Shown here: positions 3,784-48,234 of the stretch, one piece after another
Position numbering within the stretch: position 1 is the stretch's first letter
Layout: every line of letters begins with the position of its first letter
Assembly (NCBI GenBank): GCA_000004695.1
Contig: CM000154.2
Location: 1,312,001 to 1,376,000, forward strand
Direction of reading: 5' to 3'
DNA length: 64,000 bases
Origin: Dictyostelium discoideum
Taxonomy: Eukaryota
Translations under genes and position numbers: made by a program
The notes under the pieces: generated by a model
The model's database searches: none
What the model saw: the letters and a program-made list of their open reading frames with translations, nothing else
What the model was told of the DNA's origin: nothing

Positions 3784-5087
3784 TTTTTATTATATATATA
3801 TTTATTTTATAATTTACAACTATACAAAGGAATTTTATTGGTTTTTTATTGAATATATTTGATGTGTTGGGTTTTATTGATGTTTTCTGGTCTTGAATAT
3901 TGATTAAATCTTTTAAAAAACAGATCTATAACCAAAAAAAAAAAAAAAAAATTGTTGTTATTTATATATTCGTGAAAATTTAACAATCATCATTTTTTTT
4001 TTTTTTAAAATTTTTTATTTTTCATTTTTCATTTTTTTTTTTTTTTTTTTATTTTTTTTTTTTTTTTTTTTTTTGGTCAATTGGAAATCAAATTAAAAAA
4101 AAAAAAAATAAAACAATATTGTTTATTATCTAAAAAAGGTGATTAAAAAAAAAAAAAAAAAAGAAAATCATTGGATTATTTATTAAATTTTAATCAAAAA
4201 TTTTATTTTTAGGATTTAGATATATACCATTCATTTTTTGTAATTGTTTTTTTATTTTGGAGAATGGGAATAAAATTTATATAAAAAAAAAAGATAAAAA
4301 AAAAAGATAAAAAAAAATTTGATTATTTGATTGAATTGGTTTATAAATTTTTTTTATAAAACTAAAAAAAAAAATAATATTCATAAATTTCTTAATTTCA
4401 TTTATTTATTTTATTTTTTTAAAAAATAATAAGTGAGTTTTTTTTTTGATCAAAAAAAATAAATGAAAAATATTTAAATATTTGGATTATTTTATTATTT
4501 CAAGTTTGACATTTTAAAAAAAAAAAAAAAAACACCAATTCAATCAAAATCAAATTTTTTTTTTGGTTTCTTTTTAAAATCTATTTTTTGAATAAAATAA
4601 ATTCCCCCTTGTTCCTCAAAACAAAAAAATTAATTACAAAAATATGGATGATAAATAATTAAATTCAAAAAAAAATAAAATTTTTGATTAAATATTACTT
4701 TTTTTTTTTTTTTTCAATCCCCAAATCTTAATCTGTTTTTATCAATAACCCTTTTTTCACAAAATATAAAAATATCTTAACCCCCATGCCTGGAATTTTT
4801 TTTTTTTTACAATTATCACCCCCAAACAGTTTATTATATTTAATTTTATTATTATTTTTATTATTATTATTATTTCCATTAACCCCACCAAACCTTTTAT
4901 TATTATTATTATTATTTTAAACCGTTTTTTTTTTTTGAACTGTTAAAAAAATTCAATTATATTTATTTTTTTTTTTTTTTTTTATTAATATTTTTTTTTT
5001 ATTTTTTTTTTTTTTTTTTATTTTGGAAGTATAAATAAAATTATTTTTAATAATAATTTCCTTAGTTTTTAAATAATAATATAAAAA

Positions 5088-5259
5088 ATGAATAAATTTT
5101 ATTCATTACCATTAATTATTATTTTAATAATTTCGTGTGGTGCTTTTTTTATCCACGGAGAAGAGGCATATTTTGAATATAGGATTCATAATGAAAAATT
5201 TATTTTCAAACTTAGTGATGATATTAAAATTCAACATGCAAGAAGAGTATTATCTGGTG
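5088..5259 (+). CDS. Secreted tandem-repeat protein, exon 1 (signal peptide [24 protein letters not shown]...)
   Basis: ATG at 5088 (track ORF) opens a hydrophobic N-terminal signal peptide. Donor GTATGT at 5260 leaves phase 1. Confidence 0.55.
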
Positions 5260-5567
5260 GTATGTATTTACAAATAAAAAAATAAATAAATAACTTAAAA
5301 AATAAACAAATAATTAATTAATTATATAATCGAATTAATAAATTAATAAATAAATGAAAAAATAAATAAACAATTAAATAAATAAAAAAATAAAAGAATG
5401 AATTGATTGACAACATTATACTAATTTTTTTTTTTTATAAATTCTTATAGATGAAATAAGTTTGTAAGTTGATAATAGTTATTTTATTATTATTTATTTA
5501 AATATCTTCTTAATATTAATATTTACTATAACCCAATAATTATAAAAAAATAGAACAAACGTTGTAG

Positions 5568-5659
5568 GTAAAATTATTAACAAACCAATAGAATATAATA
5601 TTAATTGGGATTTTCATCTTGACCCAGACTCAGTTACTTTTTTTGAATCTGAAACAGAG
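5568..5659 (+). CDS. Secreted tandem-repeat protein, exon 2
   Basis: Acceptor 'ttgtag' at 5567 and [31 protein letters not shown] in phase with exon 1. Donor is GTAAAT at 5660. Confidence 0.5.
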
Positions 5660-5795
5660 GTAAATTTATATTTAATAATATTTTTATTTTATTTATTTAT
5701 TTTTTAAAAAATATTTAACAAAGTCAATTAACATGTAAATTAAAAATATTTAAAAAAAAAAAAAAAAAAAATAGTTTTGTAACCAAAAATTCCAG

Positions 5796-7928
5796 TATGT
5801 AAATGGATATATTGATAAACTTTGTGAAAGTGATAATTGTTATTTTTGCCCATGGGATGGTTCACTTGTTAGGGAATTATATTTTGGAGATATTAAACAA
5901 GATCTATTACTTCGTAATAATGAAAATCAACAAGTAAAACAAGTATATGAAGGTGATATTAAACAAGATTTAATTCGTCGTAAAAATAAAATTCATCCAG
6001 AAAAACAAATGCATGAAGAGGATATTAAACAACAAGTTTTTTTCCGTATCAAAAATATTCATGAAAAACCAGTTTATGAAGGTGATATCAAACAAGATTT
6101 ATTACGTCGTAAAAATAAAAATAATCCAGAGAAACAAGTATATGAAGGTGATATTAAACAAGATTTATTACGTCGTAAATATTATGATAAATCTCAATCA
6201 ACCCAAGTATATCAAGGTGATGTGATTCAAGATATATTACGTTCAATAAATCGTCAAGAAAAAGAAATTTATGAAGGTGATATCAAACAAGATTTATTAC
6301 GTCGTAATAATCAAAATAATCAAGAAAAACAAGTTTATGAAAGTGATATCAAACAAGATATTTTACGTCGTAAATATTATGAAAAATCCCAATCAACCCA
6401 AGTATATCAAGGTGATATGACTCAAGATATATTACGTTCATTAAATCGTCAAGAAAAAGGAGTTTATGAAGGTGATATCAAACAAGATTTATTACGTCGT
6501 AAGTATTATGATAAATCTCAATCAAACCAAGTATATCAAGGTGATGTGATTCAAGATATTTTACGTTCTATAAATCGTGATAAAAAACCAGTTTATGAAG
6601 GTGATATCAAACAAGATTTGTTGCTTCGTAATAATCAAAATCCACAAGAGAAATCAATATATGAAGGTGATATCAAACAAGATATATTACGTCGTAAAAA
6701 TCTTGATAAATCTCAATCAATACAATTTTATCCAGGTGATATTATTCAAGATATTTTACGTGTTTTAAATCGTGAGGAAAAAGAAGTTTATGATGGTGAT
6801 ATTAAACAAGACTTATTATCTCGTAAAAATCTTGCCAAATATCAATCAACAGAAGTATATCCAGGTGATGTCATTCAAGATGTTTTACGTGTATTAAATC
6901 ATGATGAAAAAGAAGTTTATGAAGTTGATATCAAACAAGACTTGTTACGTCGTAATAATAAAAATCCACAAGAGAAACCAGTATATGAAGGTGATATTAA
7001 ACAAGATATTTTACGTCGTAATAATCTTGATAAATCTCAACCAAAACAAGTATATCCAGGTGATACTATTCAAGATATTTTACGTATTATTAATCGTGAT
7101 GAGAAAGTTTACGAAGGTGATATTAAACAAGACTTATCAGGTCGTAAAAATCATCAAGAGAAAACTGTTTATGAAGGTGATATCAAACAAGACTTATTAC
7201 GTCGTAAAAATCTTGATAAACCTGATTCAAAACAAGTATATCCAGGTGATGTTATTCAAGATATTTTACGTGTTATTAATCGTGATGAAAAAGAAGTTTA
7301 TGAAGGTGATATTAAACAAGACTTATTACATCGTAATAACAAAAATCGTCAAGAGAAACCAGTATATGAAGGTGACATTAAACAAGATTTATTACGTCGT
7401 AATAACAAAAATCATCAAGAAGAACAAGTATATCAAGGTGATATTATTCAAGATATTTTACGTGTTTTAAATCATGAAGAGAAAGAAGTTTACGAAGGTG
7501 ATATTAAACAAAATTTGTTGCGTCGAAAAAATCATGATCATCCAGAAAAAGAAATTTATGAAGGTGATATTAAACAAGATTTATTACGTCGTAATAACAA
7601 AAACCATCAAGAGAAACTTGTTTATGAAGGTGACATTAAACAAGATTTATTACGTCGTAATAACAAAAATCATAAAGAAGAACAAGTATATCAAGGTGAT
7701 ATTATTCAAGATATTTTACGTGTTTTAAATCATGGAGAAAAAGAAGTAAATGAGGATGAAATTGAAAAAGATTTGATGCAACGTAAAAATCACCATCAAG
7801 AAGAAGAGGCTTCTGAAGACTTGGAAGAAGAAATTGGAAAACTTTGGAATAAACAAAGTCAAGCATTTGTTGAACAACATCCAAACCAACACAACAATCA
7901 AAAAACAATTCACTTGTCAAGACAATAA
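5796..7928 (+). CDS. Secreted tandem-repeat protein, exon 3: Cys-rich motif ([13 protein letters not shown]), then about 25 tandem 20-23-aa units (V)[12 protein letters not shown](K/N)N...EKQ
   Basis: Acceptor 'tccag' at 5795. The frame is continuous with track ORF 6009..7928 (ATG 6009 is in frame, 213 nt downstream). A super-repeat of about 65 aa (195 nt) recurs about 10 times, with a dibasic RR in every unit. Confidence 0.75.
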
Positions 7929-43882: not shown

Positions 43883-44185
43883 ATTAAAATAATTAAAATT
43901 AAACTAAATTATATAAATAAACTAAATAATAAAATAATAAAAATTTTTTTTTTTTTAAAACAAATTACCTATTTTTTTTTTTTTAAAAAAATAGGCTTTT
44001 GAGGAGGTACCAAACCCAAAATTTAATTTCAATTTTAAAAAAAAAAAAAAAAAAAAAACTTTCCAAACAAAGAAATCACACAAAATATTGATTATAACCA
44101 ATTTTGAATTAGGGATTTAAAAAATAAAATATCTAAAATTCTATTTATAGGGCAAAAAAAAAAAAAAGAGTGGTAATTAATTAAA

Positions 44186-44218
<33 letters not shown>

Positions 44219-46322: not shown

Positions 46323-46704
46323 ATTATATTATTTTAATTTAAAAATTTTTTTTTTTATTTTTTTTATTTTTTTTTTTTTTAATTAATTTAAAACCAAAAA
46401 AAATAAGGACCAGCTTTTTCATAATCATGGATTAAATCAAAAAACCAATTTTTTGTAATAAATGGGATGGTGGGATTATGAACCCAATTATCAATTTTAA
46501 TCTTGCAATAAAAAAAAAAAAAAAAAAAAAAATTTAATTTTTTTTATTTTTTTTTTTTATTTTTTTTTTTTTTTTTATTTTTTTTTTTTTTTTTTCCAGC
46601 CACTATTTTTTTTTAATTTTTTTTTTTTTTTTTCACTCACAATATTTTCCACCAAATTTGATAGACCATTTAAAAAAAAATACAAATTTTTATTAATTAT
46701 TATG

Positions 46705-46795
46705 TTTGGGAAAACAGTAGGGCGGTAGCCATAAAAGTTGGAATCCGTTAAGGAGTGTGTAACAACTCACCTACCTAATAAACAAATAATTGGGG
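46705..46795 (+). rRNA. Fragment (about 90 nt) of nuclear LSU (25S/26S-type) rRNA sequence embedded in an intergenic spacer, likely a pseudogene or fossil
   Basis: ACAGTAGGGCGGTAGCCATAAAAGTTGGAATCCGTTAAGGAGTGTGTAACAACTCACCTACCTAATAAAC matches the universally conserved LSU segment (yeast: GGTGGCCATGGAAGTCGGAATCCGCTAAGGAGTGTGTAACAACTCACCGGCCGAATGAAC). Similarity ends on both sides, and the fragment is flanked by long homopolymers. Confidence 0.55.
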
Positions 46796-47446
46796 ACAAA
46801 TTTGGAATTTTTAAAATATGGGTATTTTTTAATTAATTTTTTTTTTAAAAATCATTAAATTAATTAATTTTAATTTTTTTTTTTTTTAATTTCCTAATAA
46901 TTCTAACAATAAAATAAAATCATTTTTTTTTTTTTATTTTAATTTTTAAATCAAATGGTTTTTTATAAAATTGAATATTGAGTTGAGATTATTTTTTTTT
47001 TAAAAAAAAAATTTAATAAAATATTATTTATTTATTTTTTATTTGTTTGAAAAAAAAAAAAAAAAAAAAAAGGAGATCAGGGTTATTTTTTTTTGAATCA
47101 TAAATTTAAAATGTAAAATAATAATATATTAAGGACAATAAACAATATTATTATTTACTATCTTAAAAAAATGTGAATATCTGTTGTTTTGAATTAATAT
47201 AATTATTTGGTTATATGATTTACATAGTTTCGGAAAAAAAAAAAAAAAATTGATTTTTTTTTTTTTTGAGTAAAACCTATGTAAAAATTTATGTAAAAAT
47301 ATTCGTTTTTTTTTTTTTCATTTTACATAAAATTTTTTTTTTGTGTGAGAAACGCCAAAAAATTTCGAAAAAAAAAAAATTGGCACCTGAGTAAAACTTT
47401 TTTTTTTTTTTTTTTTTGTCTTTAGTTTACTGTACAGATAATCAAA

Positions 47447-47487
47447 ATGCCTCCAAAAGTAGATCCAAGCGAAAAAGTTGAAGGTGT
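47447..47487 (+). CDS. rpl12: Ribosomal protein uL11 (RPL12), exon 1 (MPPKVDPSEKVEG-)
   Basis: MPPKVDP is the conserved RPL12 N-terminus MPPKFDP. Donor GTAAAT at 47488. Confidence 0.7.
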
Positions 47488-47780
47488 GTAAATAATTTAA
47501 AAAAAAAATAAATAAAATAATAATAATAATAATAATAGAATAATGAAAATAAGTTTGAATTAGCAATAGTAATATAATGACTGAAATAAAATAAATAAAA
47601 AAAAAAAAAAAGAAACCGAGGAAAAAAAAAAGAAAATTTCACAATTATTTAATTCGTATTATTTGATTTTGGATAAAGAAATTATAGTTAAAATAATATT
47701 AATAATAAAATAAAATAAATAAAATAAATAATTTTTTTATTAATATAAAAATTTAATTAAATTTAATTAGTCTTCCTCAG

Positions 47781-48234
47781 AGTATGTGGTGGTGAAGCTG
47801 GTGCTATGTCCACCCTTGCACCAAAACTCGGTCCACTCGGTGTTTCACCAAAGAAAGTTGGTGATGATATCGCTAAAGCCACTCAACCATGGAAAGGTAT
47901 GAAGGTTTCAGTCAAATTGACCATTCAAAATCGTATTGCTGTCCCAGAAGTTTTACCATCTGCTTCAGCATTGGTCATCAAAGCCTTAAAAGAGCCACCA
48001 AGAGACAGAAAGAAGGAAAAGAACATTAAACACAACGGTAACATCCCATTAGAAGAAATCTGCAAAATCGCCAAGACCATGAGATTCAAATCTTTAGCTG
48101 TTGACTTCAAAGGTTCAGTCTTAGAAATCTTAGGTACTGCTCACTCTGTTGGTTGTAAAGTCAATGGTAAATCACCAAGAGATATCCAAGCTGGTATCCA
48201 ATCTGGTGAAATCGAAGTTGTCGAACCAAAATAA
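47781..48234 (+). CDS. rpl12: Ribosomal protein uL11 (RPL12), exon 2
   Basis: Acceptor 'tcctcag'. [88 protein letters not shown]... is collinear with RPL12 and contains track ORF 47806..48234. The total is 164 aa. Confidence 0.85.

Follow-up and report, generated by a model that had tools for sequence, protein, structure and literature searches.

An rRNA-derived element beside rpl12 in dictyostelids: a candidate free-standing mimic of the GTPase-associated centre

Why does a short copy of one domain of the large-subunit (LSU) rRNA lie next to the gene for a ribosomal protein that binds this very domain? The question is raised by a 64,000-nucleotide stretch of a Dictyostelium discoideum chromosome (hereafter the window), in which an rRNA-like element occupies part of the spacer between a Frag1/CWH43-N family membrane protein gene (PF10277; 45343-46188, + strand) and rpl12 (47447-48234, + strand). 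The latter consists of exon 1 (47447-47483), an intron (47484-47770) and exon 2 (47771-48234, including the stop codon), and its spliced product matches uL11/L12 proteins, with the domains PF03946 and PF00298 and 99% identity to a Dictyostelium L12 entry. The element lies 0.66 kb upstream of the rpl12 start on the same strand, and uL11 is a protein that binds the rRNA domain of which the element is a copy. A first-pass annotation had taken it for a retroposed or fossilised rRNA fragment, or for an insertion derived from a junction. Here we ask what the element is, whether it has been maintained by selection and what it might do.

Identity and borders of the rRNA-like segment

To establish its ancestry, we judged homology by the Rfam model of eukaryotic LSU rRNA and by real eukaryotic LSU contigs, rather than by the D. 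discoideum 26S rRNA. In a search of 141 nt, the Rfam model (RF02543, LSU_rRNA_eukarya) matched 46703-46784 on the + strand (UGUUUGGGAAAACAGUAGGGCGGUAGCCAUAAAAGUUGGAAUCCGUUAAGGAGUGUGUAACAACUCACCUACCUAAUAAACA) with 64.0 bits (gathering score 50, E 2.5e-15), the match spanning model positions 1226-1307 of 3401 and being complete at both ends. A blastn comparison of the whole window with nine genuine eukaryotic LSU contigs yielded a sole match at 46710-46782 with 80-88% identity. The segment thus stands alone among the 64 kb of the window, where its 32-mer core has a single exact occurrence (against none in 100 shuffles). The claim that the segment derives from LSU rRNA is thus borne out, and both the sequence and the structure of such a gene or pseudogene fragment are matched in the window and in an independent assembly of the same species (L026; GCA_054883475.1). 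Its placement in a chromosomal spacer outside any rDNA unit is likewise upheld, since neither Rfam nor blastn found rRNA homology in the flanks beyond the 82-nt match, whereas genuine rRNA contigs carry on for kilobases. Rfam scans of the whole window at the gathering threshold, and of 1.6 kb at E<=10, did not recover the element, because the speed filters of Infernal make long scans miss it.

The rRNA portion that is matched corresponds exactly to helices H42-H44, the GTPase-associated centre (GAC), and the element can be aligned base for base with yeast 25S rRNA 1217-1286 (UCUAGACAGCCGGACGGUGGCCAUGGAAGUCGGAAUCCGCUAAGGAGUGUGUAACAACUCACCGGCCGAA). We take this yeast interval to be H42-H44 and equivalent to E. 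coli 23S rRNA 1051-1108, the L11-binding 58-mer, the sequence of which was located in the E. coli 23S rRNA. Homology had earlier been described as ending inside homopolymer runs; its limits are instead the 5′ and 3′ arms of the outer H42-like stem (46703-46709 and 46778-46784), the closest A/T runs lying about 20 nt beyond them. The borders given by the Rfam LSU model are identical in L026 and in both copies found in Cavenderia fasciculata (see below), and its structure line delineates a closed unit made up of the outer stem, an inner stem and two hairpins. The same yeast interval has served as the “GTPase-associated region” (GAR) probe, to which the assembly factor Mrt4 binds in vitro and on which Mrt4 and Rpl12 form a complex (PMC13077063).

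The window and L026 are identical over 6.85 kb save for 40 substitutions, 37 of which cluster in 46341-46949 and five of which lie in or beside the element. At all five of these positions L026 agrees with the sibling species, and the states in the window are derived and mostly AT-ward; one of them, 46709 T>G (window versus L026), breaks a pair of the outer stem in the window only. Of the AT-shifted substitutions that the first-pass annotation had regarded as typical of the lineage, four are peculiar to the window, L026 having rRNA-like states at these sites. The window-specific substitutions also account for the lower Rfam score of the window copy, as RF02543 gives the L026 copy 80.1 bits. The clustered differences reflect either base-calling errors, the segment being hemmed in by homopolymers, or the presence of a diverged haplotype. 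The locus is not an assembly chimera, since L026 and five further dictyostelid genomes, all assembled independently, carry the element at the corresponding syntenic position.

Fold and conservation of the element

The whole self-folding unit, as predicted by RNAfold, spans 46693-46793 (+ strand): a clamp of non-rRNA sequence, formed by 46693-46701 pairing with about 46785-46793, encloses the rRNA-like H42-H43-H44 core at 46703-46784. Following the structure line of RF02543, the 5′ arm of the outer H42-like stem (46703-46709) pairs with 46778-46784, and that of the inner H42-like stem (GUAGG, 46717-46721) with CCUAC at 46770-46774, so that the 3′ arms of both stems together occupy 46770-46784. 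Between them the Rfam alignment places an H43-like hairpin (the “1067 stem-loop”; 46723-46747) with its loop at 46731-46739 (AUAAAAGUU), and an H44-like hairpin (the “1095 loop”; 46753-46768) with the loop GUAACA at 46759-46764. The 3′ arms also contain an AAUAAA (46778-46783), which is seen in group-4 species only. For the + strand of the window the minimum free energy structure coincides with the centroid at -23.6 kcal/mol, against -16.2 kcal/mol for the minus strand. When folded alone, all copies from other genomes described below form the same three-way junction together with an extra closing stem of non-rRNA sequence, and the sequence of this clamp differs from lineage to lineage.

We gathered loci for comparison by means of the RPL12 and Frag1 proteins. 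A blastn search with nothing but the window fragment as query located the element in the Frag1-rpl12 spacer of three Dictyostelium sibling genomes (L001-L003; 97% identity), of C. fasciculata (83%) and of Heterostelium album (85%). With a covariance model based on the structure in Rfam, the species with an element beside rpl12 scored 93-121 bits, and C. fasciculata proved to have two tandem copies. Orientation is the same, and spacing is kept at 500-630 nt, across three deep lineages (groups 1, 2 and 4). The remainder of the 1.26-kb spacer gave only AT-rich low-complexity matches with the distant species. At four-fold degenerate sites, identity is 49-57% in Frag1 and 71% in rpl12 (window versus C. 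fasciculata); as we attribute the latter value to shared codon bias, rpl12 is a poor neutral yardstick and Frag1 was used instead.

Co-occurrence with rpl12 thus extends over the D. discoideum clade, C. fasciculata and H. album, and does not hold in four other lineages. With the covariance model and its filters off, D. purpureum and P. violaceum have no element within 6 kb of rpl12 or beside Frag1, and A. subglobosum and T. lacteum have none near rpl12 despite intact Frag1-rpl12 synteny, the spacers between the two genes being only about 390 nt and 260 nt long, respectively. The element is therefore dispensable in these four lineages, or has moved. The Frag1-rpl12 synteny is itself broken in D. 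purpureum and P. violaceum.

Among eight copies, seven of them distinct, 96.7% of the cells in paired columns hold standard pairs, compared with 28-51% when the partners are slid against each other. Four base pairs are altered on both sides among the copies. Depending on the copy, the inner stem has A-U, U-A, C-G, G-C or G-U as its middle pair, and all of its cells are paired; the outer H42-like stem shows U-A/A-U swaps along with G-U and U-G wobbles; a G-C pair of the H43-like hairpin is U-A in C. fasciculata and H. album; and the G-C pair closing the H44-like hairpin is A-U in these two species and in a metagenomic copy (on contig L019, see below). The covariation score was reached by none of 500 shuffles, in a sample that comprises only about five independent lineages. 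The paired columns contain 13 G-U/U-G cells and no A-C cell, which favours the + strand as the structured one.

The unpaired positions are also conserved. The H44-like loop is unchanged across the copies save for one change in H. album, and the H43-like loop is mostly conserved as in real rRNAs, with 46733-46734 varying among copies. The mimics keep almost every loop and junction residue that does not vary among real rRNAs; in them, the G of the conserved GCCGAAU is never G. In place of pseudogene-type decay, we see an element that is conserved with compensatory changes between flanks that cannot be aligned. Taken together, these patterns in the sequence make it very probable that the element is a functional structured RNA.

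Position relative to rpl12 and a copy elsewhere

Between the element and the rpl12 ATG, at 47098-47439 (+ strand), a four-species alignment reveals conserved blocks: ATGTAAA(A) boxes that occur repeatedly, a TTGATTT between an A-run and a T-run, and a T-run with GTCTTTAGTTTACTGTACAG after it. C. fasciculata and H. album share the CTTTAG start motif and the TATGTAA boxes. These blocks probably represent the promoter and transcription-start region of rpl12. About 630 nt separate the element from the putative start site, and it also lies beyond the conserved blocks, hence outside the canonical rpl12 mRNA, although it may be included in a 5′-extended isoform. In two of the sibling genomes (L001 and L002), the rpl12 start site and leader are duplicated, with the second copy lying approximately 230-240 nt upstream of the element, an arrangement that suggests transcription of the element from an rpl12-type promoter. 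We found no DUSE, A/B-box or other recognisable ncRNA promoter at the element, and no supported alternative splice signal or splice donor beside or after it. A look-up of the 32-aa ORF overlying the element in Logan contigs gave no match, and the Logan contigs found via Frag1 are only about 0.9 kb long and end at AT runs.

Taking the number of genes to be about 12,500, we estimate the chance that a random spacer borders the gene for uL11, P0 or Mrt4 at roughly 5e-4. The link to rpl12 is supported both by the improbability of such adjacency arising by chance and by its retention in three deep lineages.

Scanning metagenomes with a mimic-type pattern recovered eight genuine rRNAs and one true stand-alone mimic on contig L019, which was also found on L022 (18.5 kb) and L023 (17.4 kb) and is thus confirmed on three contigs. 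This copy has an intact fold with its own clamp stem and G-U pairs, and is situated about 45 nt after a ubiquitin-like ORF ending in LRLR*; no rpl12 was found within 5-8 kb of it. L022 and L023, the two contigs that the ARAGORN tRNA scan covered, are gene-dense, have 31% GC and carry numerous ORFs that belong to no known family. The motifs A-run-TTTGATTT and ATGTAAAA on a mimic-bearing contig resemble dictyostelid rpl12 promoters, and we therefore suspect that these contigs come from an unsequenced dictyostelid-like amoeba. A scan of viruses found no match, and a scan of prokaryote genomes recovered one contaminating eukaryotic rRNA.

Rival readings, proposed function and known systems

Could the element be a neutral relic, i.e., a retroposed, fossilised or junction-derived scrap of rDNA without function? 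It is clearly rRNA-derived and only 82 nt long, it is missing from several dictyostelid lineages, and the window copy has accumulated the five derived, mostly AT-ward changes. Dispersed rDNA fragments, such as orphons, rRNA-derived SINEs and rRNA-like segments of mRNAs, are typically multi-copy, decaying or lineage-restricted; they share with the element the condition of being short rRNA-derived sequences outside the rDNA unit, but the element comprises a single structural domain that is syntenic across Dictyostelia and shows covariation. Its retention at one site in groups 1, 2 and 4, with the spacer around it unalignable, the compensatory changes and 97% pairing, the coincidence of its borders with a structural domain in every copy and the evolution of a separate clamp stem in each lineage all speak against such a relic, as does the lack of a poly(A) tail and a target-site duplication. 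A retroposed fragment or rRNA-derived SINE in particular is set aside, there being no flanking direct repeats, no 3′ A-tail and one copy in the window. On account of synteny, covariation, domain borders, clamp stems and the missing marks of retroposition, we reject the neutral fossil, including the scrap or junction artefact of the first-pass annotation, as very improbable. The copies may nonetheless have undergone gene conversion from the rDNA or may track each species' own 26S rRNA; variants of the mimics (CUG/CAG and GAAG/CUUAC) also occur in genuine rRNAs.

We regard as highly unlikely a role at the level of DNA, whereby the rDNA-derived sequence would serve the rpl12 promoter as a distal enhancer, an insulator or a TFIIIC-type site. 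In favour of this, a highly expressed gene begins about 0.6 kb downstream, and GTTGGAATC within the element resembles the B box, GTTCRANNC, the function of which is abolished by the C56G mutation (PMC5391098). However, GTTGGAATC has a G precisely at this essential C, and C. fasciculata and H. album do not share the motif (they have GTCGGCATC), by which a tRNA-like Pol III unit or TFIIIC site, for which an A box 30-60 bp upstream of the B box would be expected too, is also discarded; moreover, compensatory pairs, G-U asymmetry and clamp stems would not be expected of protein-binding DNA. A product of the minus strand, be it an RNA antisense to 26S rRNA (guide-like or interfering) or the leader at the 5′ end of a small gene on that strand, is barely credible. 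A DUSE-like TACCCATAT at about 46820-46828 and a possible small spliced ORF at 46393-46672, both on the minus strand, would favour it. The former is missing in L026 and the sibling species and the latter is unaligned in the siblings, for which reason the small gene was rejected; further, the G-U pairs would turn into A-C mismatches, the minus-strand fold is weak (z = -0.19), and a 70-nt complementarity is unlike any snoRNA guide. A box C/D or H/ACA snoRNA, which would carry an antisense guide of 10-21 nt along with its boxes, is likewise at odds with about 80 nt being sense to rRNA, with the structured + strand and with the lack of an Rfam snoRNA match. We assume the Dictyostelium DUSE of snRNAs and Class I RNAs to be [AT]CCCA[CT]AA, placed about 60 nt upstream of the start; a small ncRNA gene dependent on it was dismissed, there being no conserved DUSE upstream on the + strand and the minus-strand look-alike being unconserved. 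A coding role for the 32-aa ORF (46738-46836) was also dismissed, as this starts with TTG rather than ATG and the substitutions track base pairs, not codons.

The reading that we propose, and to which we give about even chances, is that the element is a selected RNA mimic of the GAC that binds proteins of the stalk base, uL11 in the first place and possibly P0 and Mrt4. It is based on the identity of the rRNA domain, its borders, conservation and covariation, and the adjacency to the cognate gene. The + strand RNA would be a free-standing copy of the 26S GAC (H42-H44), selectively maintained, in which the clamp stem closes the domain and allows it to fold independently of the remaining ribosome. 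Through this mimicry it would probably bind the proteins of the rRNA site, with uL11 (RPL12) as the first candidate and P0 (uL10) and Mrt4 as further possible partners. Its role might then be that of a decoy, sensor or escort of protein awaiting incorporation into the 60S subunit, with feedback on the supply of uL11. Transcription, binding to uL11, P0 or Mrt4 and any effect on rpl12 are what we infer rather than observe. Of the parts of this proposal, binding to GAC-binding proteins appears rather likely, action in trans as a separate small RNA comes close to an even chance, and action in cis on rpl12 via an upstream or 5′-extended transcript is doubtful; the location beyond the promoter, the absence from four lineages and the gene context of the L019 copy argue against a strictly cis-acting role.

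These same features lend some weight to a further alternative, namely a stand-alone ncRNA acting in trans, whose position near rpl12 is mere inherited synteny and which titrates something other than the supply of uL11. Its targets could be Mrt4 or P0 in stalk assembly, translational GTPases, or a compound or toxin acting at the GAC, with rpl12 not being regulated. The L019-type copy sits in another gene context with its fold and clamp in place, four dictyostelid lineages have lost or relocated the element while keeping rpl12, and the element in the window is placed ahead of the rpl12 promoter, not within the mRNA. Moreover, the loop nucleotides, which in the ribosome are turned towards factors and not towards uL11, show no less conservation than the stems, and Mrt4 is able to bind the yeast GAR fragment in vitro (PMC13077063). 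Against this stand the low probability of chance adjacency to the gene of the cognate protein (about 5e-4), the preservation of that adjacency in the same orientation and at 500-630 nt in three deep lineages, and the lack of a recognisable promoter or terminator of a separate gene. We consider this alternative possible, if on the unlikely side.

The proposed uL11-linked mimic can be compared with several known systems. With the genuine GAC of 25S/26S/28S rRNA (H42-H44) the element has helices, loops and junction residues in common, whereas it is detached, chromosomal and single-copy in the window, has non-rRNA clamp stems and never has the G of GCCGAAU. Imitation of rRNA by RNAs involved in ribosomal protein feedback is textbook knowledge in bacteria, and to our knowledge eukaryotic cases are few and all lie within the regulated pre-mRNA. 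The bacterial examples, such as the rplJ leader bound by L10(L12)4 (Rfam L10_leader) and the mimics bound by uL1, uS8, uS15 and bL20, resemble the element in imitating an rRNA site outside the ribosome. They are, however, convergent look-alikes inside the regulated mRNA, whereas the element, which is known from sequence alone, is a true homologue with 80-88% identity to real LSU rRNA, occurs in a eukaryote and lies upstream of the promoter of the neighbouring gene, possibly as a separate RNA. Likeness to the rRNA site of the ribosomal protein, as seen in autogenous regulation, is found here, H42-H44 being the site of uL11, P0 and Mrt4. Eukaryotic autoregulators include yeast Rpl30, Rps14 and Rpl22, C. 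elegans RPL-12 and RPL-1/L10a, and human RPS13 and RPL3; feedback of a ribosomal protein on its own gene is what they share with the proposed role of the element, but their regulatory elements form part of an intron or exon of the transcript under control and affect splicing or translation, whereas ours is outside the annotated transcript. In bacterial autoregulation, uL10 recognises both the H42-H44 region of LSU rRNA and its look-alike in the rplJ leader (PMC10931766). C. elegans RPL-12 autoregulates the splicing of its own pre-mRNA, and human RPL12 has AS-NMD isoforms (PMC4937301).

We found neither a description of a uL11/GAC mimic in eukaryotes or Dictyostelium in the literature nor a family for the element in Rfam. 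What we have is a literal copy of an rRNA domain that has stayed beside the gene of a protein binding that domain on both sides of the deepest split among social amoebae. Should it bind uL11, P0 or Mrt4, it would represent a eukaryotic GAC mimic of a kind for which we found no earlier description, a clear case of rDNA exapted into a regulatory RNA, and a tractable handle, in Dictyostelium, on the buffering of unassembled stalk-base proteins. As such mimics are invisible to standard Rfam scans of long sequences, others may have been overlooked. We raise only tentatively the wider possibility that dictyostelids and the AT-rich, gene-dense genome of the metagenomic contigs, encountered in at least four metagenomes, possess a family of free RNAs exapted from the GAC, serving as decoys or escorts of uL11, P0 or Mrt4 and descended from a uL11-linked founder; if true, such RNAs would constitute a class of eukaryotic regulatory RNA with its origin in an rRNA domain. 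The gene cluster of L022 and L023 was seen in four metagenome assemblies.

Copies of the element and genuine LSU rRNAs

Stand-alone copies of the GAC mimic, the copy of LSU rRNA helices H42-H44 with its own clamp stem, are present on three metagenomic contigs: L019 (4056-4150, minus strand), L022 (8320-8414) and L023 (8335-8429). The structure of these copies is intact, and they lie approximately 45 nt downstream of an ORF coding for a ubiquitin-like protein, the terminus of which reads LRLR* and is without the GG. The gene cluster surrounding the metagenomic mimic was recovered from four metagenome assemblies, with the mimic itself confirmed on the above three contigs. These contigs are intron-less and dense in genes, with a GC content of 31% and many ORFs without known families; their suspected source is a dictyostelid-like amoeba, or possibly a giant virus.

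In Cavenderia fasciculata, the element occurs as two tandem copies (L005, 5147-5243 and 5315-5411) separated by 72 nt. These copies differ by a compensatory pair, which is C-G in one and U-A in the other, and also beside the H44 stem. At window 46778-46783, in the outer stem's 3' arm, the group-4 species have AAUAAA as against AAUGAA in rRNA. If this hexamer were to function as a polyadenylation signal, cleavage would fall right behind the clamp stem; its presence may equally be a coincidence in an AT-rich genome.

The set of genuine eukaryotic LSU rRNAs comprises eight metagenomic sequences (L012-L018 and L020) and one from the bacterial MAG CAZZGE010000249.1 (L021). Among these, the counterpart of E. 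coli A1067 is a G, A or U, and compensatory variants of both H43 and H44 are present. The sequence from CAZZGE010000249.1 is a eukaryotic rDNA contaminant within a bacterial genome bin.

The spacer in two assemblies of the same species

A comparison of the window with an independent D. discoideum assembly (GCA_054883475.1) across 6.85 kb revealed 40 substitutions as the sole differences. Of the 40, 37 are crowded into window 46341-46949, a stretch of about 600 nt surrounding the element; a second region of difference is 44113-44195. At every such difference that could be compared with the sibling species, the window has the derived state. The cause of this clustering is one of two: sequencing error in a stretch flanked by long homopolymers, or a haplotype that is hyper-diverged.

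The same spacer contains an island of 27% GC (window 46393-46503), the remainder of the spacer being at 2-10% GC. This island, which is found in both D. discoideum-level assemblies, has an ORF-like reading on the minus strand (ending in DNWVHNPTIPFITKNWFFDLIHDYEKAGPYFFWF*); it yielded no alignment in the sibling species and no Pfam match.

The upstream region and gene models of rpl12

In two sibling Dictyostelium genomes, the start site and 5' leader of rpl12 (TTTTGTTTTTAGTTTTCTGTACAGATAATCAAAATG) are duplicated, with the duplicate lying approximately 230-240 nt upstream of the element (L001, about 5036-5095; L002, about 5058-5105). Comparison among the sibling loci showed this duplicate to be missing from the window and from the third sibling, L003. 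The region upstream of rpl12 is further marked by repeats of ATGTAAA(A) in both orientations, along with an A-run-TTGATTT-T-run (window 47098-47330; C. fasciculata L005, about 5530-5950; Heterostelium album L006, about 5500-5540). Both motifs are common to distant dictyostelids and the metagenomic contig L022, where they occur upstream of 9676 and 12429; they probably represent a transcription-factor site and a core promoter feature.

The rpl12 gene spans or introns are unusually long for dictyostelids (about 0.36-0.7 kb) in D. purpureum (L004, 6001-7186), P. violaceum (L007, 6001-7058) and A. subglobosum (L010, 7324-7683). These three species are without an upstream mimic, and the covariance model of the element detected no GAC-like element inside their rpl12 genes. 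In Tieghemostelium lacteum, rpl12 (L011, 7101-7675) is unannotated and lies in the spacer behind the Frag1 gene. It is the product of this neighbour, the Frag1-family protein P0126, that public databases name "S60 ribosomal protein L12", in what looks like an annotation mix-up. The 5' end of the H. album rpl12 model (L006, 5656-6100 region) appears to be wrong: this 180-aa model starts at 6001, with the conserved MPPKIDPSEKVE start being at 6097. Here, a GTATGT donor lies behind the conserved CTTTAG start motif (at about 5670), and this implies a 5' UTR intron of about 390 nt.
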